Assembly (NCBI GenBank): GCA_016618385.1
Contig: JABFOP010000357.1
Location: 287,545-351,544 of the forward strand
Direction: 5' to 3'
Source: Nymphon striatum
Taxonomy: Eukaryota
Length of the DNA stretch: 64,000 nucleotides
Positions 15,659 through 64,000 of this stretch are shown piece by piece. The stretch's first letter is position 1. Each line of letters begins with the position of its first letter. The position numbers were made by a program, and so were the translations under genes. The notes below the pieces were generated by a model. That model had not been told where the DNA came from. It was given only the letters and a program-made list of their open reading frames with translations, and made no database searches.

Positions 15659-15838
15659 TTAATAGTATGAATCTGAATATGATCGAGAGCGAGATCTATA
15701 CAGACTTCTTGATCTAGACCGTGACTTTTTGAAGGAATATGCTGGTGAACTTCTACTAAATTTACGGGGCGAATAACTTCTACTCCTTGATCTTCCGCGA
15801 CTGTAATCATCTTTTACATAAATATGTGAGGTTTCACC
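15659..15838 (-). CDS. SRSF1: SR splicing factor terminal coding exon. Encodes the RS domain (Arg-Ser dipeptide repeats) and the stop codon.
   Basis: The tttttgatttttcag acceptor is followed by GETSHIYVKDDYSRGRSRSRSYSPRKFSRSSPAYSFKKSRSRSRSLYRSRSRSYSDSYY*. Compare human SRSF1 [27 protein letters not shown].... The phase-0 junction after ...FRSHE matches. Confidence 0.88.
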   Translation of the reverse strand, partial: GETSHIYVKDDYSRGRSRSRSYSPRKFSRSSPAYSFKKSRSRSRSLYRSRSRSYSDSYY

Positions 15839-18001
15839 CTGAAAAATCAAAAACATCAGTTTTTCATAATTACCTTTAAATTTATCAAATTAATCAATAT
15901 CAATGTATTACATAATGATTTAATAACACACTCAGAAATTAAAAATAAAATGCAGTATAAGCAAGAGAACCAATAATATATTATCTATCAAAATTTCCTA
16001 CAATTTTCAGATAAGTTTTATTCTCAATTGGAGGTGAATGGTTATAAAAAAAAAAAACCAATAAACTAATTCGGTCAGGCCAAAGAAGCATAGCTTCACT
16101 AAGATATTAAACTTGAGTCAAAATTTGGATTTCTCGATTGTCATGCCATTTATACTACTTGCAGGGTACAAAACAGACAATCGTCGCATTTAGTCAATAA
16201 ACATCTTTCCGAACAATACTCGGCGATTCAACACTTTTGTGTGTTCCCTAAACTTTTAGGCCTCTCGAACTGCATGCCAACTCAATTTTTTTTTACATTT
16301 AATTACACAGAATCAAATATGAATCAAATTAATCAGTATAATTATCATAAAACCTAACTTAACTTAACCTACCGTATTTTCCGCACTATCAACCGCACAG
16401 GATTAACACCCGCACCCCCACAAGGGTCATACAAAATCCACACAATCTCCGCACCGTCTTATCACCCGCACCTCTCCAGTGAGAAATTTCCCGTCTGCTG
16501 TACACTGTTATAGTGTATCTCCACCACGCACATCGGAATGATAGTCATATATCCGAAATACAGTGATAATCCTGAGTTTAATCGTCACGATCCTCATCAG
16601 ATTCGAATCCATCGAAATCCTCGCCTTCCGTATCGTCATGGAACAGATCGTAATACAGCTGGGCCAACAGACAGTGCATGGCCGCTGGGAGGTGAACAAA
16701 CCACCTCGTTCGTTGACAATGATTGGCTTTAGGGGTGATATTACGGAGAATGAAAACGTAGAAATTACAATATACAACCGTAAGACTACTTCCCTTCAAT
16801 TTGGATATCAAAATGATATGGATATAAACAGGAAATTTGGTAATTTCTTTACGCCATCTTCGATAGTGCCGTCATCATCATATCAGTCTACTGTCGATGC
16901 TGCGATTGCTTGTGTATCGGTGTATGCATGGGTTGAGTGCAATGCAGGGTGTCTTTGCGAGTAGCGACCGTATATATTTTTTTATTTCTTTCGGAGTTGG
17001 CTGTGTATAATTGATCCCGGTTGGAGCAATTTAAAAATTATTTTAAATTATTTTCAAAGCTATCTGTCATTATATGAAACTAGTTACATATCCTCTATTT
17101 ATCACATAATAGATGTTATCAAGTGCATTGTGCAAATAATTGTGATATATTCCACGCGTTGAACACCATGCAATAACATCAGATTGGAATAACTTAATAA
17201 TTGTGTTATTCCACTAATAATAATATAAAAAATTTCAAATATTCCTCCACGCACAGTAAACAGATGCCATTGTTGTCTTGCATACTAAATTCAAGGTAAT
17301 TTTTTGTTATATATTATATATGGACATTATCAATTTCTACCAATATCCATATTGTGATGGCTTGCAGAAATACAAACAATGTTGGATTGTTGCATATATC
17401 TCATATCAAATGGGAACTCATTTTATTATAAACATTTGGTTGTCGTAAGTTTGAAATCTTCTGTTTTTCGTTTTGTCCTACACATGCTAAATGTTTGTTA
17501 AATATTAGGACCATTAGAAAGCACAGAAAAGAAAGTAGAGGTAGCTCTGAGACAAATGAAGAGCGGAAAGGCATTAGGACCAACAGACAAGCGATCTATT
17601 AAAGGCAGCAGGAAAGAAAGGAGAGAGAGAGGGGATACCAGTAGACTGAAAGAAGTACAACCATACCAATTTATAAGGGCAAAAAAGATGCTATAGATTG
17701 TGGCGCTACTATTCATCGTAGTAATGGGTAGTGTATTTGCAGATGATTTAGTATTGACAGCAGAATCACAGCAAGAAGTACTGGAAACGTTCGAGAGATG
17801 GAGATAAGGAATAGAAACAAGAGGACTGTGTAAACTTGGATAAAACAAAGGTAACGGTAACTGAAAGCGATATTAATTAATATGCAAATTTCTCATTTAT
17901 GCAATAACATAGTAAACAATACCCAAGATTATGACATATTAATAAAATGAAATCACACATACAATTGATGAGATAGAAAAAATAAATTCAATAAATGATA
18001 C

Positions 18002-18441
18002 CTCATGGGAACGGAACTTGGATTCATCCAACTTTTTCACAGCATATTTCATATCTTCATACCTTAAAAATTCAACTACTCCTGTGCCATCTTTAAACAC
18101 ATCAGCATAGCATACATCACCAGCTTCTCTCATGTGGTCTTTTAAATCTTGCCAGCTACCAGTTGAAGGTAAGTTAGAGACTTGTACACGATACTGAGAA
18201 CGCCTTGCAGGAGGCCCACGTCCCCTCCCTCGAGGTGCATGAGATCTATGACCACCACCACCTCCTCCTCCTCCACCACCACCTCCTCCTCCACCACCCA
18301 CTGCCACCGCCGCCACCACCACCACCTCCGCCACTACCACCACCACCGCCTTCTCCTCTGCTTCCTCGTGGAAACTCGACTCTCAGTTTATAACCATCAT
18401 AATCATACCCATCTCTTGCATGTACAGCATCATCAGCATCT
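18002..18441 (-). CDS. SRSF1: SR splicing factor exon 2. Covers the end of RRM1, a Gly-rich hinge encoded by a GGN microsatellite, and the pseudo-RRM (RRM2). There is an apparent +1 frameshift inside the Gly tract.
   Basis: The tttttcag acceptor is followed by (R)[40 protein letters not shown].... In the other frame the sequence continues ...[86 protein letters not shown]|gtatca. The [20 protein letters not shown] heptapeptide region is the hallmark of SRSF1/9 RRM2. The two frames overlap between 18249 and 18346. Confidence 0.85.
18240..18350 (-). repeat. Coding GGN trinucleotide microsatellite (poly-Gly hinge of the SR protein).
   Basis: About 35 consecutive GGT/GGA/GGC/GGG codons on the minus strand (CCN on the plus strand). 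Confidence 0.9.
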
Positions 18442-18810
18442 CTGAAAAATAATGTTTCAGATATAGAATCCTTTATAGTTGAAAATATTCTTAAAAACAG
18501 AATTGTAGCCTGAAATAATGCCACAATCGACGTCACAATGAACCATGACTGCTTCCTAACAGGCATTTTTTCAGGCTTCTTACTGGCATTGATTATTAAA
18601 AAATTAAAATAACAATGTGGCAGAAGACAAATAACAAACAAGTTTATTCAGTCAGCCAAAACGAAATAAAAAAGTCAGGTGCACAGTAATTCATAATATA
18701 AAAAGCGGACTAACTACTAGAAACCCAAGTATAAAACAAATTAACAGAGGATTTTCCTCTACGATTGGAATGTTCTTTAAATGGAAAGTCTAGTGGTCAT
18801 TACAAAACTG

Positions 18811-19570
18811 GCCAGGGTTTCCGCTGCCAGTCGCCAACGGCGAAAAAATAAAAAAAATGGCGATAAAATGATTTGCCGAAAACAATCGTTTTTTATAGGT
18901 TTGTTTCTTGGCGAAATTGAGGCCGTTATTAGGAACATAAATTAAAAAATTATTATTCACAGAGGTTAGTACAGTATTACGGTAAACATTATATTTGATT
19001 TCGGTTCTTATTTTGTGTAATTATGAGTAAAATGTGTTGTGATGTCCTAACGTTGAATTTTCGTACCTCCGAGCGCTCGGACGAGCCACATTTTCACCGT
19101 CACGATTACGGCATGGAAAATTACCCAATCCGGGTAAACAGGCCTCAACGAAATGTGGTCGGTACCGGCGAAATATCTACTACCTTTTTTATACACGAAA
19201 TTTCTCTTTACTAAACATCTCGATCTGGCCTAGGGAGCAATATAACACACAGCCGAAAACACAGTACGCAGTACTTTCACGCATGTATTTTAGGCCGTAT
19301 GCGAGATCGCGTTTGAAAATTCCGCAACCGAAAAGCATATAAAAAGTTTTAAAATGCGTTATTTGAAGTATAAGAGTATTTCCATTTTATTTTTTACAGG
19401 GTTCGTACGTGTCCTTAAATTTCCTGAAATTTCATTTTAGTCCTGAAATGTCCTGAAAAATGTCAAAGTTAGTCCTGGAATACCCCCCTCCCAAACCCTC
19501 CCCGCACGTAAAAAATATTTGGGATAATTGTGGCGAAAAAAATATAAGGTCCAGTGGAAACCCTGACTGG
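18811..19570. mobile_element. TIR element family D, with TIR (G)CCAGGGTTTCC(G/A)CTG. It contains a family-C fragment and lies in SRSF intron 1.
   Basis: The left end gccagggtttccgctgccagtcg is the inverted complement of the right end ccagtggaaaccctgactgg. A 282-bp relative lies at 61741-62022 (gcagggtttccactgg...cagcggaaaccctgc). Partial ends lie at 43028-43100 and 48290-48340. The 19470-19560 segment recurs inverted at 61760-61850. Confidence 0.55.
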
Positions 19571-21269
19571 CTGTGTGTTGTTATTTTTGAATTGAGTTTA
19601 GCTTTTCAAAACATGACCACACATTAAATTCGAGTTTGATTTCTTTAAACTATACCACCAAGCTAATCTCTCGACTCTCAGCAGATTAGGTGTCAACTGC
19701 TGGGCATGTGGGATTAATGACACCATATAATGTCCGAAGCATCGTATCCATGACATTGACACATTAAACATAAGCACAAAAATGTGGCTGTGCACCAATC
19801 ACCAAAATCCAACTCCGGTCGTCCAAAGGGCGACTGGACACATAGCTGGCTAACCTTATGCTCCAGTAGCGATTGCCTGCGCTAGCTACACCACGTGTAA
19901 CCCAAAATTACAGATTTTTTCAGACGGAGGTGTTCTTGTGTTTAAACATTCATTTTCATAATTTCGAGAAGTAAAGCCTGGAAGTTGAAGAAAGAGCACG
20001 AATTTGGGGTGAGGGAAACTTTCAAGATAGTTATAATCATCATTTATATGTTCACTGCTTGATAGTTGAACAAATGAGTGCTGGGGGAGGAGTCATCAAT
20101 GGTGGCGTGATTGGTTGTTACAGTGTTACAGACGCTGGGTAGGTGGGTGGGTAACAATTTTGGTGAAGAAAGATAGTGTACGTAATTTTTTCATTTTCAT
20201 TCACTCGAGCGCTTTGTATTGCGGAATGTGTAATTATTTAACTGAATGTAGAATCATCATGAAATTTTGTCAGAATAGAGACAAGATATAGTTGTATATG
20301 TTGATTTACCTTTAAAGACCGTTGGTTGAGTAGAAACTTTCACTACGGTTGATAGTAAATGACATAAATTTTCGGATCGATCACAGACACACTAAACTAT
20401 GTCAGAAATAAAAAATTTTAAAACTAGGTTACTGGGGGTTAACTCGATCGACTCTAGTGACCGCCAATTCCAGGAAAATCTAGCACTGAGAGCCAGTGAG
20501 AAGCGAGAATTAGGGAGTCCCCGCTCAACCAGATTTCATTCCATGGAACATGGATTAAGACACGATTTGAACATTTACCATCATACCTATTTATTGTAGG
20601 AAAGCAGCGTTTCAAAATGTATACATTTTTTACTTTTTAAAATGATCTCGTTTCGCAACCAGTGGTAGGCACCGGTGAATCCGTCAGATGGCGCTGCAAA
20701 ATATGTAACACTCTGTAACACGGAGATACTATTGCCCTACGTCAGCAAAGGGCTGCCAAACATGAATTTGAAAACATGCTTTTTTAAAATGGCCATTTCA
20801 TCGTTTCTCATGTTAAGATACACATTGTATGGGTCACAACAAATATTTGGGATATCCCGTGATCATTTGACCGCCTTCATTTTTTAACTTTTGTCTGCTA
20901 AATTTATAAAATGGCGATCGGAAGATAACCCAAATTTCACCGTTATTAAAATAGCTCACGCATCTAAACGGAGCCATGAGCAACATTAAAACATTGCTTT
21001 TAATAATTTTGAGAAACTATTCTATCATTTAATCTTCGCGAAATTATGATACCTGTAGCACTTTAGGAGAAATAAAGCCTTGAAGTAGAGGCTTTTTCGT
21101 TCGTGTTGCATCAAATTCAATGTCGTTAACATGGCATCTGGGGAGGGAGAAGTCAATAGAGACGTAATTATGACGTCACCACAATGTGTTCGGGCAATAA
21201 GTAACATGTAAAGTATAGAAATTCGAGTGTTACAAAAATTGGTACATTTTTGACTCTAAAAACTGCTCT

Positions 21270-21500
21270 CGTTTCCAAATCAGTGGTCCAATTTGACCCA
21301 TGTAAAAAGCATATTCACCCATTTTCCATAGGCTTTCCAGTGTGGCTGAAAAAAATCCTGTAAGAAAATTTTATTTTTTTATGCCGGTGCCTACCAGTGG
21401 TCCAATTTCCAATTTGGCTCATTTTTATAGGCTTTCCAGTCTGCCTGAAACGGATCATGTGGTGACACATTTTTTTTTTTTTTTTTTATACCGGTGCATC
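21270..21500. repeat. Tandem repeat of about 2.2 copies with a unit of about 110 bp. It lies in SRSF intron 1 and each unit ends in a poly-T run.
   Basis: The unit ...cagtggtccaatttgacccatgtaaaaagcat...ccataggctttccagtgtggctgaaaaaaatcctg is repeated as ...cagtggtccaatttccaatttggctcatttttataggctttccagtctgcctgaaacggatcatg. Confidence 0.6.
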
Positions 21501-21685
21501 CTCCTCGGCCAAAAGAAAATTCAAGTGAGAATCAATCTTCAAAATTAAATAGATTAAAATTATTTGGGCCGTACCCCTAACCGCACTATTACGAGAGCAA
21601 AGGTCGTAACTGCATACAGATTGATTATAATGAAGAAAAACCATTGAAATAATATTAATTAATAGGCAATAAACATAACAAAGAC

Positions 21686-21852
21686 CTTGGATCTTCAAAT
21701 TCAACAAAAGCAAATGGAGGCCCACGGCGATTCTTCAAATCAATGAAAACGATTTTCCCATATTTATAGAACAGATCTTCAATATCCTTGCTTCGAATAT
21801 CAGGAGGCAAATTACCAACGTATACTCTACATTCACTGTTTCTATTTGACAT
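21686..21852 (-). CDS. SRSF1: SR splicing factor (SRSF1/SRSF9-like) coding exon 1. Contains the ATG and the N-terminal part of RRM1. The exon ends in phase 2 at a GT donor.
   Basis: Minus-strand translation gives [55 protein letters not shown](R). This closely matches the human SRSF1 N-terminus ([25 protein letters not shown]...[10 protein letters not shown]). The donor CCAAG|gtcttt leaves a split AG|A Arg codon that is completed by exon 2. Confidence 0.9.
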
Positions 21853-24800
21853 CTTAAAAAGGATATTAAATTAAGAATTCTAAATGCGTTGAACGAAGAG
21901 ATTGAACAAGCACGCTTTTCCGAAAACGTAATCTCGCACCAGGGCACCAAGAGAATTAAAAATTTTAAAGTTAAAATTATTTTGATATCGTATCATCCTT
22001 ATTATATTAATATAATTTAATTTTATATAAAATGAATAACATTACATTAACTTATGGGACATAATATTTTTAGATATAAAAATAAAAGCGGGAAAAATTT
22101 GCACATTGCATTCTGGGCTGATAGAAGAACCTGCCAGAAAATAGATCATATCATCCAATCATCATTCGAGTAGAATAGGGCCAAGAACTCGTGTTGAAAA
22201 AAGTTGTAGAAGCGACAGCTCATAACATTGTTGTTTGAAGTGACTAAATTTGATTTGATTTGATTAATCTTGTGGTAAGTTTAGTAAATTAATGTAATCT
22301 TTCATTAGAAATTTAGGCGTTTAGAATCCATTATATTTAAAGATTTTACACTGGAGTCACTTAATTTTTTTCGCACTATTCAATTCATGAATGATTTTTC
22401 TACATCAACTCCAGAGTCGAGAAGTCTTTATTACAATGAGTTAATCCTGTAATGAATATAATATGGGTTTTCTGTTGAATTTTTTCTCAATAGACACTCC
22501 ATATTTAGAGTATTTATTTAAAGATATAATTTTTATATCAATTATTAATTCGGATTGGTTCGTATCTAAATCGGTACCGGCTGTCAGAAATTTGAAATGC
22601 GGAGCCTGAAGAGGCTGCGGGTACGACTGGTATTTGGCGTTTAGAATCGAAGTTATACTCAATTAAGACTTTTCTTATTTCTTGATTGAATTAACCTCCT
22701 GATAATGCCCATATTGTCATAATGATACTCCCGTAGAAAGAAAGAGGAGAGTATGTTGCCATTGTTGGTGTTTGAGTGGTTAGATCATTAGAAATTAATT
22801 CCAATTCAATTAAGGTAGTGTCTATTTGACCGGTAGCCGGCCACATTTTGTTTAAAATTGTTTACCCGGAGTCAATCCTGATTGGGTAATTTTCCATGAC
22901 GTCATTGTGAATATGGCTCGTCCGAGCGCTCAGCTGGAGGTACAGAATTTAACGTTAGCACATACATTTTAAGCAGTGTCTTTTTTGCCGGAATCGGGCA
23001 CATTTCGCTCTAAAGTTATTTTATCCGATATCGTGTCTGAATGGCTAAAACTGTACAGAGATTTGAAAACGTCTCTTGATCAGCCTGCGGAATAGCTAGG
23101 TTAAGTTAATAATAATTATAATGGATGGAAGATAATAATAACTGTGTATTATAACAGAACAAACTTTACCTAACCTATTCCGATCTAGGCTGATCCAAGC
23201 CTGGGGATTTCAGATTTTATCGGTAACAGTTTTTCAGTTCCGTACTTTCTCTTCATGGGAACCCAAGGGAAATAAAATTTCGATTCCGTGCTTAAAGTTC
23301 ATAGGAACCGTTTTTTTTTTTTTTTTTTTTTTTTTTTCCCAGTCATATTCAGCTGTTTTAGGGCTATTCCAGAAAATTGTACATGGGGGACAGAAGGTAC
23401 TTTTTTCATACCCCAACAACCCGTTTAATTTTTTACCATGCGTCATATAAAATTTTATAAAAATAAATAAACTGATAGGAAACGAAATTTCTTCTGATAA
23501 TTATGCGTACTAGATCCGAGTCGGCGCTGCTTATCCTGAAACCAGAGATCAATTGCTGGATCTGCATTAAAGTTTTCAATACTGGTTTCTTCACTTTTAC
23601 GGAGACATACTTTCAGCATTGGCCTGCCTAAGCTGCTTCTGTGATCATTAGCCAAAATTAATATTCAAATCTTCCATATTCTATCATTTTCAAGATTGAC
23701 GAAAAAAATTTTGTCGTACCGATACGATTTACGGCATAATTATCAAATTATTCCATCATTTTTAAACAAAAGCCTAGATTTTGATTTGATGTTTTTTTTT
23801 CAAATAGTTTGTAGGCAATATTTAAACTCGCTGCCTCTACCATGCTGTTTATTTTCTTGAATGTAATGAGGGAAAAGTTAAAATAGCATGGATACCCAGG
23901 CTAGTAGCGTAATTGCAATTCATGAAAGTCAAAACTGCTATCTCACATCGTAAAAATAATGTGTGACCCCAAACAATTTTTTTCTGCAGCGCTATTTTTT
24001 TTTATGAACCGTTTATAAATCCTTATTTCGGGCCTTGTGTATGCATCGGTTTCATGAAAGAGCTGTGTAGTATTTTCTTAATCTAATACAGTTGCATCAA
24101 AGACAAAAATACAATGACATGTTATTATTCATTTGCTGATTAAAATGAATAGAAAGTGTATTTGATGGTGAATCTGCATGAAAGATTTCGGGAAAATTGT
24201 ATATAATGAATACATACCTGAAATTTGAAAAAAGTTGTCATAGAATACAGGTTCAAGGGTGAAAGTATTCCGGAACACGTCGGATTCTCCGGTTTTTACG
24301 GGTCTTGAAGGGTCGTTTTTCCAAATCGTGTAAATCCGTTGAGATTTTTTTTCAGAGTGGGGGGGAGGTATGACCCAACTCCTCAGATTTTCGATAGTTA
24401 ATTTCTCAAAAGATACTGGCAGACTGGTTTTAGAGAGAAAATACCCCGTCCCTCGGATAGGACGTTAATGGAGTTCCAGTGTAAAGGAGAGTCATACCCT
24501 CTATACGTTAAAGAACACACTTCACTATTCGGATAAAGAGTAGGGTAATCCTGGTGAAGTGTAGCACCTGCGTAGAACACGCAGAACACCTATTCTTGAC
24601 TTTTAAAGGACCCGTACGAACCCTGAATTCCTACAAAATATGAATTACTATGGATTTTAAGATTATTTATAAAATGAAAACCTTTATTGCACTAAACTCA
24701 CAAGGGTTTTTTTTTTTTTGAGTTTAGTGCAACAAAGGTTTTTAAAAAAAATTAAAGAAGAAATAAAAAAAAAATCATAAAAACACTCCAGTTACATGAG

Positions 24801-25965
24801 TGAAGGTTTTTCAGGTTTTTCAAAATTTTCAACTCTCACCCATGCAGGTTAAATACTTCGGAAATAAAATTAATTTGCTTTAATTTTGTCATTTCATGTC
24901 ATGTTTTAGCTATGAATTATGACAACCCTAATAGATATTTAATGGGCAGCATAAATAATTGTGGGTGTCACATTTGAAGGAGTGCTTATGCACCACACCT
25001 TAAGTGAATAAAATCTCATTGCCATTTATAGAAGCAATTGATTATTACTTTTTTAGTTATAATAATATCCATGTGTGAATAGTTTCAACTTTATTAAATA
25101 TTGATAATAATAATATTTAAATTCTTTGGCCTAACTAAGCTATAGATATCTGAAATATTGAGATTTCAAATATCTATAGCCTAGTTAGGCCAAAAAATTT
25201 AAATATCATTATTTAATAAAATTTAATATTTTTCTGAATATACTTCTAAATGTAATTTATCAAAACACACTTTTATTCATGTTTAATATCTGTTAAAATA
25301 TAAAAAAAAAAATTTAATTTCATAATTTTATTTTCATTCAGAACCCCCTATTAATGAATACACAAGAACGCATCTTTGTTCATTCCATTCCATTCAGAAA
25401 TTATGTCTCTTTTTTTCATTTTTTTTTTTTTTGCCAAAATTATCACCCTACCCCATAACATAACACTTAACCATACCCCCTAAAAATTACGTAACAAATG
25501 TATGAAACCCCCCCCCCCATTTTTCCTGGCCAAAGCACTCTAAAAAATACCAAACTTGCAAAATTTGGCCTTTAAATAGGCCAATCTGACAATGCTGATG
25601 GTGTTATGTAACACTTGGCCAGATACACACCCCCCTAGTAACACTAGGATACATTTTCAACACATATTAAAGTGTTTTTTTTTTTAATTTTCTTCAATTT
25701 CATTGAAATAGATAGTTAATTCTGGGACAGGGACACCTTGTATAGAAGAAAATGAAATGATCTTATATTAACGTACATTTAAATATATTTAAATGATAAT
25801 CAGAAGGCATGCATGGATGCACTAAATTAACATCTCCAAAAGTATGTGTAAGGGTTCAAAGAAAACTACAGTCTTCTTTGTATTTATTTATGTATTATGC
25901 TGATAATGATAACCATGATAATTTATGTGATTTTTATCATTTTTAGGCAATCAAAATTTGCAGCT

Positions 25966-26235
25966 ATGACAGACCGTAAAGCTGTTATCAAGAATGCTGA
26001 CATGACAGAAGAAATGCAGCAAGATGCTGTTGACTGTGCTACTCACGCATTAGAAAAGTTCAACATCGAAAAAGATATTGCAGCATATGTCAAAAAAGAA
26101 TTTGACAGGAAATACAACCCAACTTGGCATTGCATTGTTGGCCGTAATTTTGGTAGTTATGTTACTCATGAAACAAAGCATTTCATATATTTCTACATCG
26201 GACAAGTGGCAATCCTCTTATTCAAGTCTGGATAA
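25966..26235 (+). CDS. DYNLL1: Dynein light chain LC8 (DYNLL1/2 orthologue). Complete 89-aa CDS within a single exon. A splice acceptor (ttttag) lies 20 nt upstream of the ATG, so the 5'UTR is spliced.
   Basis: [89 protein letters not shown] is about 90% identical to human DYNLL1 ([25 protein letters not shown]...[11 protein letters not shown]). Confidence 0.95.
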
Positions 26236-26454
26236 TTTAGATACGATGATCAAATAATACTAAGTATGATAGCTGTAAATTCTGTTCACCGCTAAAGGCG
26301 CTTAAAAGTCAAATTTAGATGTATTGTTCTGCCAATTGTTTCATCCAATCTATTAATATTAATATGATATATTATTTCATATAAGTTTGACTTTTTTTTT
26401 TCTTCAGTGTACATATTGATAGCACTAACTTATTTATTTAAGTTTGAAGGGGAG

Positions 26455-26915
26455 GCCAATGAGATGGGGGATTCCAGCGTTATGTGTGCGACATCCAGAC
26501 ACTATTTTCACCCTTTTCACTTAAAGAACTTTTCTTCGACAGTTAGATTTTCTTTCTTTCACGTAATTCTTCAATACATAACTATAGCCTGATATTACAT
26601 TTCATTTTTTTTCTAAATCTACAGGAAAAGTTAACGTTAACATTCAGTCAGATGGAAACGGCCTCCAGCTTGCCATAAACCCATGTGAGTTTAGTGCAAT
26701 AAGGTTTAAAAAAAAAAAAAGTTAACGTTACGTGTGTGCGCGCACTTCTCCTGTAGATTTAGAAAAAAAATGAAATGCAAACTGGTAACATCCGGCTATG
26801 GTCATGTATCGAAGTATTACGTCAAAGAAAGAAAATCTAACTGTATAAGGAAAGTCTTTCAGTGAAAAGGGCGAAAATAGTGTCTGGATGTCGCACACGT
26901 ATTGCTAGAATCACC
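26455..26915. repeat. Foldback or hairpin-forming element. It lies about 220 bp downstream of the DYNLL stop and is probably in the 3'UTR or flank.
   Basis: 26460-26650 is mirrored by 26730-26910 (for example ttttctaaatctacaggaaaag and ctcctgtagatttagaaaaaaaatg). Confidence 0.5.
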
Positions 26916-28289
26916 CAGAAGCACTTTTGGAAGAGAGCCATATGATTTTGGCTATGAATGCTATTTTGATTCAGAAGTCATGCAACAAATATTCCATAAT
27001 AATTGTGAAAATTTCATTCCTTTACTCATCATCTCTAATTTGTTTTCAATATTTTTTTTTTTTTTTTTGATAGAGAAAGAAAATTTTAATTAAATCATCC
27101 AGGAATTTTAGGTTGTTTTATAAGTTTACAATGTATGTTCATATAATAAAGTGTTGAGGAAAAACTATTCAGAAATAATTTTCTTTTTGTCGAGAGACGA
27201 AAGTTGGATGCTTTGGCTTTTATATATTCAAAATATATATATACACGTGCGGAACCTTTTATCCGAAATCCTTGGGACTTGGGACTTTTCGGATTTTGGA
27301 ATGAAAATTTTTTTAAGTGAAAAATACAATAAATATATATGTTATTTTAAAGTTTTTTGGTTAATTACGCATACACAAAAGTATTTTATGACCCTGCTCG
27401 GTGCTGTTTTTTGTAGTCCGAGAGGCTTGGTTATTCGCTTTCTGTATACTGTAGTAAGTTACTTAAATTCTTTCAATTTACTAAAGTCACACAACATAAA
27501 CGCCTTAATTATTTTCTGGTTAACTATTCCTGGCACAACATGTGGATTGTTTCCGGTCAAGTTTGGCGCCAAACGCGAATTTTTATTATAAATTTTGGAA
27601 AAAAAAGTCTGGTTTTAGGAATTCCGGATAAAAGGTTCCGCATCTGTAGTTGTAGTAATGTGATGATATTTTTTTTTACTTTTTGTTTTGTTTGTAAAAA
27701 TTTTGACAGTAAATGTAAAACAAAATATGATTGTAACTAGTTTTCTTTTATTGTCTTCATTATTTTCATATATTTTACAATAAATCTATTCATACTTTAT
27801 ATCCTGAATGTATTGTAACTATACCAAAGGACATATTCTGATAAGTTACCAACTTGAAGCCAGCCTCTTCTATTAATGAATTGAATTCATCCTGTAATTA
27901 AATAAACATACTTAATTCTTGAAATGTTTAGGATCACATGGGTGCATAAAAGAACAAAAATATTAAATTTATACTTATGTAAGCAATGCAATCTGAAGTA
28001 TACTCTTTCACATAACTAATGCTAATCATTCAAATTGGGGTGAGCAGAGGCTTTGTAGCCAAACAAGGTAAGAGAATGTATACTTCATGAAGAAAAAATC
28101 ACAGTTTTTTTAGTTGATTTTTTAAAGATGAAGTAAACAGACCATCTAAAGTCTAACTCTTTCACTACATTTTTTAATTTTTTTACGAAATATATGTGCC
28201 AGGCTATATAAAATTACATCCACAATCTCCACTAACATGAAATTACTCAGCATGCAAAATATCCGGTAAAAACATGTTTGTTACTTTGA

Positions 28290-28625
28290 CCTTTGCCAGA
28301 TAAGTTGTTAATGACAAATAAATTTTAGATGTCTATTTCTAATACACACACAGGGTGTAAAGATTTGACCCAAACAGTGAAGAGTAGCAAGTGGAAATGG
28401 GCCGGACACTTGTCCCGTAGAACAGGCGATAGGTGGACCACTAAATCCACAATGTGGATAACAGATAGGGGAGGAAGAAAATGGGGTAGACCGAAGAGAA
28501 GGTGGGTGGATGATATAGCTAAGTTTGATAGGGATTGGGTGGAAAGAGCTGCCGATAGAGAGGACGGGAGGCCTTTGCTCAGCAGTGGGCCAATATGGGC
28601 TGATGATGATGATTTCTAATAAATT
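28290..28625 (+). mobile_element. 5'-truncated non-LTR retrotransposon (LINE) 3' fragment. It encodes the conserved C-terminal tail of ORF2.
   Basis: The translation reads ...THTGCKDLTQTVKSSKWKWAGHLSRRTGDRWTTKSTMWITDRGGRKWGRPKRRWVDDIAKFDRDWVERAADREDG.... This fits the W.GH..R.....W.......P.G.R..GRP..RW.DD......W...A.DR..W motif of RTE/CR1-like LINE 3' ends. Confidence 0.65.
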
Positions 28626-29096
28626 TACAACATACTAAAATTCTCTAACTAATTCAGTAAAAAAAAAAATTATTTTTCATCATACCTTCATCACTGCAGT
28701 TAAATTAGGTCTTTTGTTTGACTGGGTTTAATGACTCGATATAGTCCAGACCCTGAAGTTTTTGTTGTCTGTATCATCCAGGGTGAATAAGGTTCATGAT
28801 GTTTTTTGAGAAGGCTAAGTATTAGAGAGTCTAAAAATGTATGATATCAATCAGTGGAGTGGTAGACTAGTGCCAAGGCCCATTCTTCACCCCACTTGTG
28901 GGGTATGACAAATGTAAATTAGCATTCCAGGAAAAAAAAAAGAAAAAAGATTTTGTAATTTTTAAAGTACAAAGTTGAGTCTGGCAGGAAAATTCCCCAT
29001 AGACCTGTGGAGGCTCAAACCTATTTGGCGCTAAACCCAATTTTCTTAACTAAGTCCACTCGATTTCAATATGCAAACATAAATTTTATCTTCAAT

Positions 29097-29212
29097 TCAT
29101 ATTTTCTTCTCTAGAATTATCTGATAATGTAACACCAAAGTCATTTTTGCAATATTATACATGATAATGTATTTCAGGAAAAGTGCATCAGCTTCAATAA
29201 TTTTGTAAATTT
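29097..29212 (-). CDS. COQ5: Putative COQ5 terminal exon (C-terminal tail and stop). It conflicts in phase with the exon-6 donor, so the junction is unresolved.
   Basis: After the ttgtgcag acceptor, one frame reads (E)IYKIIEADALFLKCIILQK*, which weakly resembles human EEFKDMIEDAGFHKV.... This frame needs phase 1, but exon 6 as called ends in phase 0. Confidence 0.35.
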
Positions 29213-29303
29213 CTGCACAAGTTTTCGATTATGCGGAAATATTTTCCTTTTAGGTGTTTAAGAACAGTTTTTGAAAGAAAGCGTACACACGCTTTAAAAA
29301 TCA

Positions 29304-29447
<144 letters not shown>

Positions 29448-29760
29448 TCAAATACAAATAAAATACTTTAACACAGCATATTTTTATTAACAGAAACTGA
29501 CGTTCATTAACATATATATGGCCTGTCACATCAAACCAGGGAGTGTCTGTATACAACGATATATGTGAAATTTGTCGCATTTTCAAAGTTGGAAATAAGA
29601 AATTTGGTACCAAATAGAGGGTATTCAATAAGGAATGTGAAAGTGTGCATAACTAATATCACCCAAAATGAGACTTATCCCAGATTTGATGTCATGAGTC
29701 ACATATTACTTATATATAAAATACATGTCAAAATTATAATACCTCAAAATTATTACTTAC

Positions 29761-29849
29761 ATACTTAAAGGTTTGTTTTGGACATGACTAAATTCTAGAC
29801 AAAGAAATCTGCCACCAGGTTTTAACACTCTGTAAGCTTCAGATAAGAC
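29761..29849 (-). CDS. COQ5: COQ5 exon 5.
   Basis: The ccag acceptor is followed by [29 protein letters not shown](AT)|gtaagt. Compare human [29 protein letters not shown]. Confidence 0.88.
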
Positions 29850-29925
29850 CTGGTATAGTTAATTACTAAAATTTAGTACATTAGAAAAGCGAATTGCAGT
29901 ATATAGGTATTGAAAATTATAAAAC

Positions 29926-30032
29926 CTTATCAATGTGAACACAATTGCGTATTCCAAATGCAATGGTATATGCATCAAATAAATTATCAGCCACTGGAAG
30001 CTTCTCTGCATTACCACAAATCCATTCTATTT
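29926..30032 (-). CDS. COQ5: COQ5 exon 4.
   Basis: (K)[35 protein letters not shown]|gttttat. Compare human [35 protein letters not shown]. Confidence 0.88.
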
Positions 30033-30120
30033 CTGAAAGTCAAATTTAAAATGCAATTGTCTTCAGAAAAAATAATTAAATTCCTATGAACAAGAAGATG
30101 ACGAAAGTGTGTATAAGTAC

Positions 30121-30345
30121 TGTCATGGTAATATGAAGTTTCAACTCGATTTTGTCCTATATCAAGCATTTTCTGATTAATATCACAAACAGTAACATGA
30201 AAATCTTCCTCATTAACAACTTCTTCATCAGATGAACAATTTGGACTTTCTTTTAGAAAAGGTTCATTTATATCAAAATGACCATTTTCAGTTTGGATTT
30301 TATTTGTTGAATCTAAATACTTTATGAATCTGAATGCAATATCAC
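30121..30345 (-). CDS. COQ5: COQ5 exon 3.
   Basis: (G)DIAFRFIKYLDSTNKIQTENGHFDINEPFLKESPNCSSDEEVVNEEDFHVTVCDINQKMLDIGQNRVETSYYHD|gtactt. Compare human GDIAFRFLNYVQSQ...SRVVVCDINKEMLKVGKQKA. The acceptor is ttaacag. The GTACTT donor is weak but keeps the frame into the next exon. Confidence 0.8.
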
Positions 30346-30471
30346 CTGTTAAAACATACAAATACATTACACTTTGCACTTAATCAGGTAACAAGGTTTT
30401 TGAAAGCAAAATAACTACCGTAGATATAAAAAATTTCAATCGAGAATATGTGAATGAATATTAAAAAATTA

Positions 30472-49283: not shown

Positions 49284-49365
49284 CTATATTCATACAGCAT
49301 AGTAAGGAAAATTTTAGACTTTAATTTCTTGATTTTACATCATAAAATGTATAATTTTTTCTTAC

Positions 49366-49407
49366 CTTGAATGTTGGAACATTTGATAAATCAGGATTTT
49401 GAGCCAT
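49366..49407 (-). CDS. RAN: RAN GTPase coding exon 1 (start codon).
   Basis: ATG GCT CAA AAT CCT GAT TTA TCA AAT GTT CCA ACA TTC AAG|gtaag translates to MAQNPDLSNVPTFK. Compare human Ran MAAQGEPQVQFK. Confidence 0.85.
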
Positions 49408-52137
49408 TATGATCTAAAATATTTAGAAAAAGATTATTAAAGCGGTAAGCAAGGATATTGAAATACATACAATGTATCACAAAAATTTAATTTCATGTTT
49501 TAAATTTACATGGAAGAGCTAAGTAAATAATTATCTCACTCTTCTTGTAACCCCTATTGCATGCAACCTTCACAAGCCCTTTCAGCTAACGACCGAGATC
49601 TTGAACATAGTCCCAACCATTTCTGATTGTTCTGCAGGGCTTTATTAGGGGTCTACAGGTACGAAATGATTTTGATTTGTATAAATTATTCATATCATGG
49701 AGATTATTTAAGAGTACAGATTCTTGTGCATTAGTACCATATAAAGCATTGGTACGATCATTGGAGACATGTATGCTATAGAAATAGTTTAGAGTGCTAT
49801 CAAGATGATAGCCACGACACTTTGTTTGCCAGTTGTAATTTTCGTTTTAAGATCTTTTATTTATTAGTGTAAATTTTACGTGACAGTAAAATGTAATATA
49901 TATCCATTAATTATTTTATTTTGTTTCAATGAAGTCAGGAGCCAAAATTAGCTATATATATATATATTAAAAAAAAAAATAAAAAAAAAACTTGCCGCAA
50001 GTTATATTAACAATTACTTGCACCAAGAGAATTTAACTTGTGCTTTCGAAACTGATAGTATCTCTTCACTTTCTCCCTGTTTTAGTTAATGATATAAATA
50101 AAACATAAAATAAAAAAACAAATCAAACGCTTCGTCCTGCAACTCGAAAATGTATTATGATAAAACCTAATTATATTAGTATAATTATACTAATTAATTT
50201 GATTCATTCACATATTCTGTGTAATAAAACGTAAACAATTTTTTGAGTTGCCATGTAGACCGAGAGACCAAAAAGTTGTAAGCTTCTCGGACTACATGTC
50301 CACTCAAAACATTATACAGAATAGGTTGATGAATTAAATTTAGTATAAAAGTTTAGGGAACATCAAAGTGTAGTAGAAACGCTGAATCGAAGATGAAACA
50401 ATTGACATTTATTCTTAGATTTTACTTACATGGGTTCGAGCTCTAAATACTTAAGTCTGGCATATTGTCATTTCGTTCGGTGAAAAACACTATATAATTT
50501 ATTTCGACCCCTAGAAGTGGATTGATTTGATCAGCATCTTTAACTAGACCGTCCGAGAAATATATGTACTAAGAATGTTGAATTTTTGAAGTGATTTCGG
50601 TCAACTTTCACTGAAAACGGCTTTTGCGGCACCGAAAAGTAAGTATCTTCAAACACATGATCCTAGCTTCACAGAACTTTGATTCTTTTACCAAACGAAA
50701 ATTTAGACTTTATTTACTCCATGTCAGACTACAATAGTCTGGTTTCAAACTTATTCAAGGTCAAAAAACAAAATAAAACCTTTATTGGCATAGACTTGTC
50801 AGGTAATTTTGAAAATTCGGAAAAAATATACCGAATTCACTTACTTTAATTACTTGACTTCATTTTAAGGATAAATTCAACTTGATATTAAATCAGGAAC
50901 ATATGCTCTTTTGTAGAGAGACGAAGAAGTGGTGGAGGTAACTTAGCGGGTAGACGGGCGCCATTCATTCAGACGCTTTGATAACACTCACTCGTTCATT
51001 ACACTATTTAATATTTCTTTATTCTTTCTTGTTCTTCGGTCATAAATTTTAAAATTGTTCAATAAATTAAATTTTCTGTTATTATTAGTAAGCCGTAAGA
51101 ATAAAACTGTAAAATTTAAATATATTACAGATTCCAGGGTTCTCAATAAAAAATTTTGTAAGAGGCTCAAACATGCCTGAGTGGTCCGGGTTCAAAATTT
51201 TTTTTGATTTCTAGGTGTGAAATCGTATTTTGACCATGATAATTGTATCATTTAGGTTTCTGGCCGGATGTTCACAAATTTATTTGAAATAATTAAAAAG
51301 AAAATTTTTTTTGTTTTTTTTTTTTGCCGATTTGAACTGGCCCAAGTTTGTTTTGAAGTAGTCTTTTAAGCCGGTCTTTAATGAGAACCCTGAGAAACAA
51401 GTTTTTCTACTTCATTAGGACCCATTATGACATTAAAGGACAAATATTGTTAAATATGAAGTTGTAGTTCAAAAATTATCAGTAAGCAGACTCTCGGCGG
51501 ACACCAAAAATGTAAGCATCGAAGTCTGCTAAGAACATAGTTATTAGACTTTTATAGGCCCTTAATCTTCCTTATCGTTTGTTCTGTAATCATTCACAAG
51601 GTCTACCTCTTTAAATCCTTAGAGTGATAAAAAAACATATACCACAAATCTTCCCTGTTTTTCAGTGAGCACGTCTAAGAATCAAAAATTTTAAGTTTCA
51701 CGCAAAACTCATGATTCTCGCGGGATATTTAAAAGAAATGACTGTGATAAGATGACCTTCAATGCACCCTCCACCCCACACTTTATCTCTTTTGTTCAAA
51801 TCTCTTTCCTGCCTGCAGCAATGGCTACACAAAACAGCTGGCAGTCAACATTCGTGGTTATCTCTACCCTGGGCTTGAATCTTATTTGAACCCTCCACTA
51901 TTTCACTCTTTAAGTTGTGTATTCTCGTGTTTTCCTCTCTGATAATAGATGCAGGCTGGTTTTGATTATTTAAAAAAAAAAAAAAAAAATCAAATAAACA
52001 AGCAGAAAAATAAACATTTTAAAAAAAATGTAAAGATTACTATGCCAAAAAGGCTGCACACAAGGTATAGGAATGGTGGTATGCAAAGAGGCTAAGCTAG
52101 GATGATGTGATGCATTTGTACGGTTCTCCCCATTTCG

Positions 52138-52261
52138 TCTTGCAATAGCACCTTAGCCGAGCTACGTCATAGCATGCGGACAGAAGTACATTCTAATAGC
52201 ACCTTAGCCGAGCTACGTCATAGCATGCGGACAGAAGTACATTCTCCCCAACATCAGTGCA
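52138..52261. repeat. Perfect 62-bp tandem duplication (two copies). It lies about 1.9 kb upstream of the syntaxin start.
   Basis: catagcaccttagccgagctacgtcatagcatgcggacagaagtacattct occurs twice in tandem. A partial inverted copy (ttggctaaggtgctatt) follows at about 52280. Confidence 0.8.
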
Positions 52262-54197
52262 TTACGTAAGATCTATTTTTAGATCTTGGCTAAGGTGCTA
52301 TTCCGATCATTTTGATATATAGTTTTATACACTTCCTTTGATAAATATTCTTGTTATAACCGTTACAATTTACTACATGCAAAAAAGTCACAATTTTGAC
52401 ACTGTTTATCATTGAAAATTTGAGGTAATTTAATTGCTGAAAAAAATTCATAAATTTGGTTGTAATCAACGTAGAGCCAAAAAGTAGGTATTTTGGAAAC
52501 TATAATTACAGCTGTATACATCGAACTTACTATTTTGGATGAAAGTACAATTTGAAATTTTAGCGAGCAGCGGTACGCATCCTTTTAAAATTGTGTGTAC
52601 GCCGAAAATCAATATATCGGACTTACACAACTATATGAAATCGTATGTATGCCGAAAATAATCCGCACCCAGATTCTGAGACCTCCATCCTAACCTACCG
52701 CACGCCTAGATTAGGTATATCACTAAAAATATGAAAGTTGTCCAAATATAGTTTAAATAGGCTCATCTGATAGATCTTAGCAACCAAAAATAAGGGATTT
52801 AAAATTTTAAAAATTATCTGAAGGTAATTTATTTCATTTTAAAGTGCGACTTATACGCTCCTGATTACGGTATCGCTCATCTAAGTTTTTTCCGGGTAAA
52901 CAACAGTTCTGATGGGTAAAAAATCTTTCTGGATGTTGTTGCGGTGGACAATCCGCAGTAGCTTTTGGGGGTTAGTTCTAGGGTCATAAAAGTGTGGATT
53001 GTACGTGGGGGTTTACGGTAATTATAATAAAGATCAAGAGAAAAAAATAGATCTGATTTGGTCAATTTCTTGATTTTAAAAATAGTTGTGTGGTACCCAT
53101 TCACTGAATTATTTAAAATTAGGGATTATACATAACCACACAAAATCCGGGTGTAACAGCAAGTGTCGTATCCGTATCCTCTGCCATTTAGCAATGGCCG
53201 ACCATAAATCTTGCATGATTTACATCAATTTAAAAAGTATGCTTTAGCATTCTTAGAATGTTATGCATACTTGATAATTTCTTGTCAAAATTTAGAACAC
53301 ACGATTTAAACGATTGATCAATCAAATTTCATTCTCGCTTGCCGATTTAAATTAAATGTGTTCATTTGACTAAATTAGGAAGGAATTGCTGTTCAATCTC
53401 AGTCGGCAGTTTCAAAAAACATTAAAAAAAATCTCAAAATGCTGAACTACGAGGAATACAATTTGAAATGTATGTGGAGAATAAGAAAATCGATTTTAAC
53501 ATTTATTAGGTATACCACACAGATACGAATTCACCGAGAACAAAGGGAGAGAGAGCGCGAGCAATGAGAATGAAGGTAATGGTGCTGGTACTGATGAAAA
53601 ATTATCCTCATCACCCATTTTGCATGTTTAATACAAAACTATGAAGAAAGTGTCACTAAAATTATAAAATATTGCTTCATTCATAAATATAGATCTAAAA
53701 TCTAACCTGTAATAGGAATGATGAATAACAATCGAGGTGGATGATAAGAAATTTTGAAGGATTGCGAGCAACCGGCAACACCGAGGAGAGCGGGAAGAGT
53801 AATTCGCCACTGGTTTGGCTGAGGCGGTTTAAACTGGAAATCGCGGGTGTGAGTTCGGTATTTTCCGGAAAATACATTTTAAACTTTAGAAATAGTTTGT
53901 CAAGCAGAGTTTATTAACCATTATTTTTATCATATAATCATACATTCTGACATGGATTTAAATAGGTTTAATGTATCTTTTATATTTAAATAATGAGAAT
54001 TAATTTTTTTTTTAATTGTCGTGCGTCACATCCGTCTTACGGGGCGTTTTCCGGACTTGCGTACTATATAGCTGTCACCGAACGGCTGGAAGACTTGTAT
54101 TGATTTTTTCATGAGTTCAGGTTTTTTCTGTCTGAGTGTTCAAAATTCCGATTGATATGTTTCATTAGTATTTAGAAAACTCTAAACATCAGCAAGT

Positions 54198-54364: not shown

Positions 54365-54451
54365 GCTCAAAGTGAAGATGACGATGTGGGGCCCGAATCG
54401 GTTACCGTTAATATGGATGGATCGGTATTCATGGAAGCCTTTTTTGCTGAG
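54365..54451 (+). CDS. STX1A: Syntaxin-1 exon 2 (acidic N-terminal segment).
   Basis: The atatttag acceptor is followed by AQSEDDDVGPESVTVNMDGSVFMEAFFAE|gtaagc. Compare Syx1A [28 protein letters not shown]. Confidence 0.85.
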
Positions 54452-55037
54452 GTAAGCCTTAAAGTTTATAACTTAAAACTGAAGAATGAGGCATGGCTGA
54501 AGCCATGGATTACTGACAACATTTAAGTAATTTGTTTTACTTTTGTAAATTATTCTCCTTCACTCAGTTTTGTTTGTATGGTTTAAATTGATTCTATTGT
54601 TTCTACATTAAACTTATAATTTGTGATCACACCTGTTTTTCACACCGTGAATGAGAGATCTTTCTTTCAGTTCATTTAAAAATGGGTTGTAAATGTGAAG
54701 CTTCAAGTTGGTAAGAAAATCAATATGAAGCAATGCCATGTGTATTATAGTTTTATTATCAAACAAATATATTTCATTTCCCGTTAGATTTATCAGTAAT
54801 GAAACAATATACAGTTCTGTGAAATAACTTCATTCAATATAATTTGGTGTATTGATTACCTATCCTAACCTAAGTGACAAAATTTGCCATTTTAAATGTT
54901 CAAAATTTTGGTTGATAAGTCACAATAAGTTGTGAAAGGAATGAAAATTCATACCAACGGCAAAGCAAGGGTAATAAAGAACTGCCATCTGATCTGAATG
55001 TAGAGGAAAATACATTTTTTTTTTACTGTTATTATTT

Positions 55038-62022: not shown

Positions 62023-62165
62023 TTAAGTATTACCATAAATATAAAAGCCATGTATTTATTTTATCATTTTGGGTTATTCACTTCTGGAAAAAGTATTCTT
62101 CTTTTAATTTATAGACATATTACCTTCATACTACTGTCTAATAGTAATATGCTAATAAATTTCAG

Positions 62166-62265
62166 GTGGAAGAAATCAGAAATAACATAGAAAAAATCCA
62201 AGCAAATGTGGAAGAAGTCAAAAAGAAACATAGTGCCATCTTGTCTGCTCCACAGTCTGATGAAA
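62166..62265 (+). CDS. STX1A: Syntaxin-1 exon 3 (Habc domain, helix a).
   Basis: The aatttcag acceptor is followed by [33 protein letters not shown](K)|gtaggt. Compare STX1A [33 protein letters not shown]. Confidence 0.92.
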
Positions 62266-63919
62266 GTAGGTGTTTGTTATGACTATAATATGATGTTATA
62301 TACATTTTTTTTTTTTTTTTTTTGTGTTTAATTGAATCCATTGATATGTCGAGCTAGATTTAATCAATGCTTTATGAAAATCAAATAGAAAATAGACCTT
62401 GCATGCATTAAATTTTTGAATAGCCACTTCTTTTTTCCCTGGCAGAATTCATTTTCCCTTTGCCTGTGCAGACAAAAATAGTCAAGATGCCCAAAGCAGA
62501 CATTTGGTATCATGATGGATATTTTATTTTTATCTCGTATAATTTATGTAAAATATCTTCTTCTTTCAATGTTTTGGCCGATAAATTATTTAGGTATGGG
62601 CAGCTATGAGAAAGGTTGTTTTTATATGGAGAATGTAATTCCTCTGGATATTAAACAAAGCTATTTATTTAATTGATTTATTTAATTTAAAAGAACCACA
62701 AAGTGGAATAAAAATACACACATCGTACATTTATAAATAAGTAGCAAGATAATATGACTAAAAATGTGTTAATGTTAGTAAAAAAAATGTTAGTAAAATT
62801 CAAAATTCAATTATTTTTTAGATAAAATATTATTATAAAGTTTAATTGCCTGTGGAATAAAAGAGTGTTTATGTCTGTTGGTTTTAAAGGTGGTAAGAGT
62901 AATCTACTAATACCTCGACGGGGACGTTGTTGCTCCAGGCACTTATTAAGAGGATGATTTTTATCCTCCAGTATAATTGCTAGTTTAGATTTTATTCCTG
63001 AGCCGTATATGGTATTCATACATACTTCGGGTGAACCTATTAGACGGCTGTCCCTTTTTGGTCACTCGGAGCAATTTGTATTTAATTTTTTCACTGATGT
63101 TCCCATACCAGCTGACCAGGCAGTATCGCCAGACTGAGCACAGACTGAATTAAAAAATATCTTTAGAATTTGTTGCCGGACATCAAACTTTTTTCATTTT
63201 GTAGAGACAGTAGAGCAGTAGTTGTATCAAGGCTATTCTAGAAGTTCACTGGTCCAAGATCATCAAAGCATGAATTTTTCTGTCCTAGGAACTCATTCTA
63301 AATTCATTCTAAAATTGAGTCTGAAAAATGCAAATATTGTCATTTATTGTGAACCCATAATTTACAAATTTTTGCAAGGATAAAATTCTATAATTGGAAG
63401 TAATGAAACATCCTCTGGAGAATCCAACTATTCCACTGATTTGATAATTACATGTAATAAAACTCTATCGTATGTGCAATTTACTATTAGTGCCGTGAGA
63501 TAATCAGGGGTGAAAGTTGTCTGTCAGATGACGGAATTCCGTAACAGAAAATATTTTCTGGGTCGTTCCTGAGTTTAGCGCAAATTTGTTGAAAAAAAAA
63601 TTGTATTTATGAAATAAAGGGCAAGAGTGTTAAAAAAATTTCCCAGTCCCCTCCCCGCGCTTCAGCAGCTGTACAGCTTCAAATTTCAGTACCAGAAAAA
63701 TTAACAACTTTCACCCATGGATAATTGAAAGCTATGCAAAATTAGAATTTTCCTGAAGAAATTATTAAAATTTACTGATATCGTGATGTACTCCTATAAA
63801 TGGCTGCAACCCTAGGTCTAGACACTTAAGAACCCAAAATATATGGTATTGCCCTTGAAGTCTACTTTATTTTATCATGGAACAATGTATCTTATTATTA
63901 CTCTTATTTTCATTTACAG

Positions 63920-63994
63920 AGGTCAAGCAAGAATTGGAAGATCATATGGCAGATATTAAAAAAACTGCAAACAAAGTACGGGCAAAATTAAAAT
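63920..63994 (+). CDS. STX1A: Syntaxin-1 exon 4. The gene continues beyond the window end.
   Basis: The catttacag acceptor is followed by (K)[24 protein letters not shown]|gtaagt. Compare STX1A [25 protein letters not shown]. Confidence 0.92.
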
Positions 63995-64000
63995 GTAAGT

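Follow-up and report, generated by a model that had tools for sequence, protein, structure and literature searches.

Two ancient gene neighbourhoods lie side by side in a 48-kb segment of the sea-spider genome

Neighbourhoods of unrelated genes that have been conserved over great evolutionary depth offer natural experiments in how gene regulation limits the reshuffling of genomes. The window analysed here, 64,000 bp of Nymphon striatum contig JABFOP010000357.1 (positions 287,545 to 351,544), carries such a neighbourhood: an SR splicing-factor gene of the SRSF1/SRSF9 type, the dynein light chain (LC8) gene DYNLL, the methyltransferase gene COQ5, the gene for the RPA-interacting protein RPAIN, the GTPase gene RAN and a syntaxin-1-type t-SNARE gene. 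An initial annotation, made from the letters alone, had described six unrelated genes in 48 kb, and all six are present, correctly named and in the place given. It had further proposed that, if the DNA came from an invertebrate, their order was one ancient bilaterian block resembling human 12q24. The source is indeed an invertebrate: three gene models (COQ5, RPAIN and RAN) match NCBI Nymphon striatum proteins exactly, so that the window belongs to the genome of a sea spider (Pycnogonida), a chelicerate arthropod. Is the block old as a whole, or only in its parts, and what could have kept the parts together? We find that what is old is each of two small units, the SR-DYNLL-COQ5 trio and the RAN/syntaxin-1 pair, together with their chromosome-scale linkage; the two units have been seen juxtaposed at kilobase scale, with RPAIN between them, in Nymphon alone.

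Searches of the window by tblastn, with human protein queries, and by Pfam, with all six-frame fragments of at least 40 amino acids (aa), recognised exactly six protein-coding genes, all between 15.6 and 64 kb, and their spliced models were assembled by hand (Table 1). Strands alternate along the segment, giving three head-to-head and two tail-to-tail junctions, whose spacers were measured from start or stop codon to start or stop codon. An operon-like or functional cluster is ruled out, since the genes switch strands and have unrelated functions.

The age of the trio was read from other genomes, with COQ5 homologues as single-copy anchors and 10 kb read on each side. In the amphioxus Branchiostoma floridae, COQ5(+) is followed by a Dynein_light gene(-) and a two-RRM gene(+), which tblastn confirms as DYNLL (90% identity) and the SR gene; the spacers are 2.1 kb for SR/DYNLL and 593 bp for DYNLL/COQ5. 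The sea anemone Actinia tenebrosa possesses the trio in identical order and orientation (tblastn with the window proteins), with spacers of 992 and 946 bp, respectively, and the millipede Chamberlinius hualienensis has it within 5 kb, again in the same order and orientation, with spacers of 391 and 551 bp. When flipped, the window reads COQ5(+), DYNLL(-), SR(+), exactly as in amphioxus, the anemone and the millipede. At each of these four sequenced loci SR and DYNLL diverge and DYNLL and COQ5 converge, and the two spacers range from 0.4 to 4.1 kb and from 0.55 to 1.55 kb, respectively. The brachiopod Lingula anatina has a rearranged trio, in which COQ5 is duplicated in tandem (205-aa and 319-aa products) and two SR genes of opposite orientation come next (4341-26859 of the locus); the COQ5-SR adjacency is kept, with no DYNLL between them.

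In human, we take the trio to have the relative orientation of the window, with spacers of tens of kb. That COQ5, DYNLL1 and SRSF9 are neighbours at 12q24.31, as the initial annotation had stated, is borne out by a published gene list, which gives them consecutively within chr12:120.35-120.67 Mb (MSI1, COX6A1, GATC, TRIAP1, SRSF9, DYNLL1, COQ5, RNF10, POP5, CABP1; PMC11061283). The trio genes are neighbours, then, in Arthropoda (Nymphon and millipede), Chordata (amphioxus and, from the literature, human) and Cnidaria, the cross-phylum adjacency that defines conserved ancient microsyntenic pairs (CAMPs). With about 20,000 genes per genome, a given gene would be found as a neighbour by chance in roughly 1 in 10,000 cases per lineage, so that recurrence across such distant lineages is not a matter of chance. 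Because the sea anemone has it, the trio is older than Bilateria, and the arrangement goes back beyond the cnidarian-bilaterian split.

The second unit was surveyed in five other species, with RAN homologues as anchors and 10-kb flanks. In Branchiostoma belcheri, a gene with Syntaxin and SNARE domains(-) lies head-to-head with RAN(+) at a distance of 0.65 kb, and in the annelid Owenia fusiformis the two genes are head-to-head and 1.5 kb apart. Both of these syntaxins have N-terminal exons of the syntaxin-1 type (…FMDEFFQEV / VEEIRGMIDKIQENVEQVKKKHS…). RAN and a syntaxin gene also adjoin in the clownfish Amphiprion ocellaris, but in tandem orientation. In Nymphon itself the syntaxin gene had been thought to begin at about 62 kb; its first exon in fact starts at 54198, which reduces the gap between the RAN and syntaxin start codons from about 13 kb to 4.8 kb. 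RAN and syntaxin-1 are thus close neighbours in Arthropoda, Chordata and Annelida, with the short spacers (0.65-4.8 kb) typical of CAMPs and a divergent arrangement in Nymphon, amphioxus and Owenia, the clownfish differing in orientation. We take human STX2 and RAN to be immediate head-to-head neighbours. The earlier proposal that they adjoin at 12q24.33 stands as regards the region, with STX2 at 12q24.33 and RAN inside the same 12q24.31-q24.33 deletion interval (PMC3083380). Judged from gene order, the head-to-head RAN/syntaxin-1 pair goes back at least to the bilaterian common ancestor. Beside amphioxus RAN lies a gene for a 231-aa methyltransferase, which we considered as a displaced COQ5 and rejected, as it has no tblastn similarity to COQ5 and no Ubie_methyltran match.

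The two units are joined at close range in none of the other genomes sampled. The 10-kb flanks of COQ5 contain neither RPAIN nor RAN in amphioxus, sea anemone, brachiopod, annelid, millipede or tuna, and those of RAN contain neither COQ5 nor RPAIN in the five species surveyed for it. COQ5 also has a different 5' neighbour in every species sampled: a gene for an RH-domain protein in amphioxus, for NUCB1 in the millipede, for a HEAT-repeat protein in Owenia and for an unnamed 965-aa protein in the anemone, and RNF10 in human (by list order in PMC11061283). At chromosome scale the units do travel together. On the 36.7-Mb Owenia chromosome CAIIXF020000012.1, 3.1 Mb separates COQ5, at 11.07 Mb, from RAN/syntaxin, at 14.22 Mb. 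The two genes are each on a 62,650,966-bp contig in the bivalve Pinctada imbricata and each on a 42,200,420-bp contig in the gastropod Babylonia areolata, the equal sizes suggesting one chromosome in each species. Human COQ5 and RAN, at 12q24.31 and 12q24.33, respectively, are presumably about 10 Mb apart on 12q. The search for RPAIN homologues returned only the Nymphon protein. Of the single ancient 48-kb block proposed initially, the antiquity of both sub-clusters and of their linkage survives, and the COQ5-RPAIN-RAN connection, found in no other sampled species, does not.

We hold with good confidence that two separate ancient units, derived from one ancestral linkage group, became juxtaposed in the sea-spider lineage, and that each unit has probably persisted through regulatory and packing constraint. 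Both units descend from the same ancestral chromosome-scale linkage group, which accounts for the position of both human counterparts on distal 12q and for the shared chromosome in the annelid and, by the size proxy, in the two molluscs. An intrachromosomal rearrangement in the sea-spider lineage would then have moved them to within 10 kb of each other, with RPAIN sitting between them, head-to-head with COQ5 at 218 bp. As to persistence, the divergent SR/DYNLL and RAN/syntaxin-1 pairs probably share promoter regions: the SR/DYNLL spacer presumably contains both promoters and any DYNLL 5'-untranslated exon. The short interval between COQ5 and RPAIN is, from the distance, probably a shared bidirectional promoter. 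The tail-to-tail DYNLL/COQ5 junction is so tight, at about 0.5-1.5 kb, that a breakpoint within it would be expected to damage 3'-end formation of one of the two genes. Of the genes in the two units all but syntaxin are essential housekeeping genes, and with shared promoters and tight packing nearly any breakpoint would harm the expression of one of them. It is on these grounds that we infer a regulatory constraint, and from the comparison of loci that we infer a lineage-specific origin of the juxtaposition; the identities of the genes, their order and orientation, and their recurrence across phyla are shown directly.

Several observations weigh against this interpretation. Owenia and the yellowfin tuna lack the intact trio, and COQ5 has unrelated neighbours in both (KREMEN-like and ZNRF3-like genes flank it in the tuna, Thunnus albacares), so that teleosts, going by the tuna locus, are without the trio at COQ5. 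The RAN-syntaxin pair is absent in dust mites, a sample of two RAN loci with one shared RAN sequence. Loss of the trio or the pair in these lineages means that any constraint is not absolute. A scan of CpG observed/expected ratios gave no clear promoter signal, with peaks also in repeats. The flanks read extended only 10 kb, so that slightly more distant neighbours would be missed. Finally, the ecdysozoan sample beyond Nymphon consists of one COQ5 locus (millipede) and the two mite RAN loci, and the two units could have come together earlier in chelicerate history than Nymphon.

Were the six-gene, 48-kb order itself ancestral to bilaterians, kept by the sea spider and broken elsewhere, one would expect the position of five of the six human counterparts on distal 12q and the shared chromosome of COQ5 and RAN in Owenia, Pinctada and Babylonia. 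We nevertheless judge this very improbable, because RPAIN or RAN lies within 10 kb of COQ5 at none of the six other COQ5 loci, whose 5' neighbours all differ, because no RAN locus sampled has RPAIN or COQ5 in its 10-kb flanks, and because 3.1 Mb separates the two units in Owenia. A related but more far-reaching proposal, improbable in our estimation yet somewhat less so, is that the trio, extending from cnidarians to human, is among the oldest three-gene arrangements of unrelated housekeeping genes in animals with fixed order and orientation, kept by a so far undescribed coupling through a shared SR/DYNLL promoter and interdependence of the DYNLL and COQ5 3' ends, and that the sea spider retains a remnant of an ancestral order represented in human by 12q24 and 17p13. 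Such a remnant would explain why RPAIN stands between the units. RPAIN had been singled out initially as the one gene that does not fit, being at human 17p13; we take its location, 17p13.2, to be in a region paralogous to 12q24, with 17p13-p11 duplicates of 12q24 genes presumably including CAMKK1/CAMKK2, P2RX1-5/P2RX4-7, PITPNM3/PITPNM2, NCOR1/NCOR2 and ULK2/ULK1, which makes the misfit doubtful and would agree with one ancestral segment. A literature search on this 12q24/17p13 paralogy found nothing useful.

An alternative of greater weight, though still an unlikely one, is that old adjacencies simply persist neutrally, because spacers are short and rearrangement slow, with no shared regulation. 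The very short spacers in compact genomes (391-992 bp) and the loss of the units in fast-rearranging lineages such as mites and teleosts are as this would predict. Neutral persistence is less easily reconciled with order and orientation held for more than 600 million years across phyla despite spacers of 2-4 kb in amphioxus and Nymphon, nor does it account for the excess of head-to-head orientation and co-expression that conserved pairs show relative to distance-matched controls (Irimia et al. 2012, PMC3514665). The juxtaposition could also be a chimeric join in the draft assembly, which is approximately 732 Mb in size, was made from 40 pooled animals and has a scaffold N50 of 702 kb (PMC12220506). 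On one scaffold, of 335,549 bp, the accessions of COQ5, RPAIN and RAN run consecutively (KAG1656033-35), and the same COQ5-RPAIN pair recurs on a 663,484-bp scaffold (KAG1672654-57), with identical COQ5 proteins and near-identical RPAIN models. This twofold occurrence probably represents uncollapsed haplotypes from the pooled animals rather than a true duplication, and shows that the assembly does hold such redundancy. The window, however, contains no N and is continuous contig sequence, the COQ5-RPAIN adjacency stands on two independent scaffolds, COQ5, RPAIN and RAN are consecutive on one of these, and the RPAIN exons (32.3-39.4 kb) bridge the supposed join, so that an assembly artefact seems exceedingly improbable. 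Juxtaposition of two constrained units in the sea-spider lineage thus remains the reading that we prefer.

These units resemble known systems to different degrees. The approximately 600 CAMPs are enriched in head-to-head orientation, short spacers and co-expression, which has been read as shared cis-regulation (Irimia et al. 2012, PMC3514665). Like their co-regulated housekeeping class, exemplified by HSPE1-HSPD1, SR/DYNLL and RAN/STX1 are non-paralogous neighbours across phyla, placed head-to-head with short spacers. Unlike the CAMPs, the first unit comprises three genes, including the tail-to-tail DYNLL/COQ5 junction, for which a common promoter cannot account. Bilaterian ancestral linkage groups, reportedly described by Simakov et al. 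in 2022, represent macrosynteny at chromosome scale; the sharing of chromosomes by COQ5 and RAN is as predicted for one such group. Linkage groups conserve chromosome membership rather than local order, and the kilobase closeness of the units in Nymphon exceeds what macrosynteny predicts and is unseen elsewhere in the sample. The phenomenon is well known, and the locus adds a further example of ancient microsynteny and the curiosity of two units side by side, otherwise leaving current understanding unchanged. Our literature search found no main text naming these units in a synteny context, and supplementary pair lists may already contain them. The two units, compact and easy to assay, could serve as anchors for synteny-based chelicerate phylogenetics, and bidirectional promoters and convergent transcription could be studied in them.

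Comparison with human also bears on the orthology of the SR gene. The human 12q24.31 segment (MSI1...TRIAP1-SRSF9-DYNLL1-COQ5-RNF10) matches the window in the order of SR, DYNLL and COQ5. It differs in having RNF10 rather than RPAIN on the 5' side of COQ5, and no Musashi-like gene was detected in the window over the 15 kb on the outer side of its SR gene; a Pfam scan of 1-17 kb found no TRIAP1, GATC or Musashi-like gene upstream of it. A second copy of the SR-DYNLL linkage exists at human 17q22 (MSI2...SRSF1...DYNLL2), where a 976-kb deletion removes SRSF1, VEZF1, DYNLL2, MKS1, MPO and part of MSI2 (PMC13106306). Its occurrence twice in human indicates that the linkage predates the vertebrate genome duplications, and the mirroring of the 12q24.31 genes by MSI2, SRSF1 and DYNLL2 shows that a Musashi-SR-DYNLL segment was duplicated whole in those events. 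Since the SR-DYNLL pair was duplicated as a unit, the sea-spider SR gene is equally related to SRSF1 and SRSF9. COQ5 retention is the sole mark of the chromosome 12 copy, and synteny with DYNLL cannot favour SRSF9. The initial annotation had taken synteny to favour SRSF9 over SRSF1; the 17q22 duplicate undoes that argument (PMC13106306), and the orthology statement is corrected accordingly.

Table 1. Genes, coding exons and spacers of the 48-kb segment, in window coordinates (CDS, coding sequence)
Feature	Position	Strand or orientation	Remarks
SRSF1/9-type SR splicing factor (SF2/ASF family)	CDS 15659-21852	-	tblastn with human SRSF1; splice-junction scan
SR coding exons	~21852-21686, 18441-~18338, ~18228-18002, 15838-15659	-	
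SR/DYNLL spacer	21853-25965	head-to-head	4.1 kb
DYNLL (dynein light chain LC8)	25966-26235	+	89 aa; single coding exon
DYNLL/COQ5 spacer	26236-27789	tail-to-tail	1.55 kb, stop to stop codon
COQ5 (2-methoxy-6-polyprenyl-1,4-benzoquinol methylase)	CDS 27790-32057	-	317 aa; 7 coding exons
COQ5 exons	32057-31889, 30653-30504, 30345-30121, 30032-29926, 29849-29761, 29442-29331, 27891-27790	-	
COQ5/RPAIN spacer	32058-32275	head-to-head	218 bp between start codons
RPAIN (RPA-interacting protein)	CDS 32276-39369	+	220 aa; 7 coding exons
RPAIN exons	~32276-32347, 34658-34831, ~35983-36066, ~37335-37439, ~37999-38061, ~38183-38320, ~39340-39369	+	
RPAIN/RAN spacer		tail-to-tail	3.1 kb
RAN GTPase	CDS 42488-49407	-	219 aa; 6 coding exons
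RAN exons	49407-49366, 49283-49199, 47453-47328, 43796-43609, 42793-42623, 42535-42488	-	
RAN/syntaxin-1 spacer	49408-54197	head-to-head	4.8 kb between start codons
Syntaxin-1-type t-SNARE	54198 to beyond 64000	+	5' part only; window end cuts gene
Syntaxin exon 1	from 54198	+	MTRDRLQALKS
Syntaxin exon 2	~54365-54454	+	…SEDDDVGPESVTVNMDGSVFMEAFFAE
Syntaxin exons 3, 4	~62148-62264; ~63922 off window end	+	

The gene assignments rest on several lines of comparison. The SR gene matches Pfam RRM_1 (5.6e-26), and its top match among solved structures is full-length human SRSF1 (2.1e-87). The protein has the features of the SRSF1/SRSF9 subfamily: a canonical RRM, a pseudo-RRM with the SWQDLKD motif, a Gly-rich linker and a C-terminal RS domain. 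In the linker (18228-18346) two long open reading frames (ORFs) overlap in different frames and the exon boundary is uncertain; either an intron of about 109 nt lies within the G-rich codon run, or the assembly has an indel there. The millipede SR gene has a short intron at the same position of the Gly-rich linker. DYNLL is 89% identical to human DYNLL1 (2e-55) and matches Pfam Dynein_light (1.2e-40). The exact 89-aa protein has no match in a collection of 15 billion proteins that does contain Nymphon COQ5, RPAIN and RAN, so that the gene appears to be unannotated, or differently annotated, in the public Nymphon gene set. COQ5 matches Pfam Ubie_methyltran (1.2e-42), and our model is KAG1656033.1 of Nymphon striatum at 100% identity and coverage.

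RPAIN was found by tblastn with human RPAIN; it matches Pfam RPA_interact_C (3e-5) and is 100% identical to 'RPA-interacting protein A [Nymphon striatum]' (KAG1672656.1). A second NCBI model, KAG1656034.1, disagrees with it in omitting the part of exon 4 that encodes …HSDAVTCPICKK, the start of the zinc ribbon, which suggests an alternative splice prediction or an annotation error. RAN shows 76-97% identity per exon to human RAN (tblastn), and the full model equals KAG1656035.1, 'GTP-binding nuclear protein Ran [Nymphon striatum]'. The syntaxin gene was found with human STX1A by tblastn, and is 76% identical to the amphioxus syntaxin exon that adjoins RAN. Its fragment matches, among solved structures, only syntaxin-1A, squid s-syntaxin and Monosiga syntaxin 1 (best 4.4e-18). 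The window holds the N-peptide and first Habc helices of the syntaxin-1 type, the SNARE motif and anchor lying past its end. The initial assignment of this gene as an orthologue of the STX1/2 ancestor was sound, a syntaxin-1-type gene being consistent with the ancestor of vertebrate STX1 and STX2.

The remainder of the window is AT-rich eukaryotic DNA with a GC content of about 33%. The tblastn and Pfam searches recognised nothing in its first 15 kb, Pfam found no families anywhere in the window at E<=0.01 beyond those of the six genes, and scans for Rfam families and tRNAs returned none. On the minus strand at 11384-12400, ORF fragments resemble a decayed mariner/Tc1-type transposase (…NLESLRLSLCRAWADIDQKTICAAV…), below the Pfam threshold. 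Interspersed repeats occur as copies of 91-96% identity (28344-28546/59627-59829, 8146-8367/58407-58628, 18904-19069/55162-55327 and 55927-56156/57297-57526), none of which matches a Pfam family at threshold. One repeat family carries a retrotransposon-like ORF tail (…GRPKRRWVDDIAKF…) and occurs within the final intron of COQ5 and, in inverted orientation, within the first large intron of the syntaxin gene.

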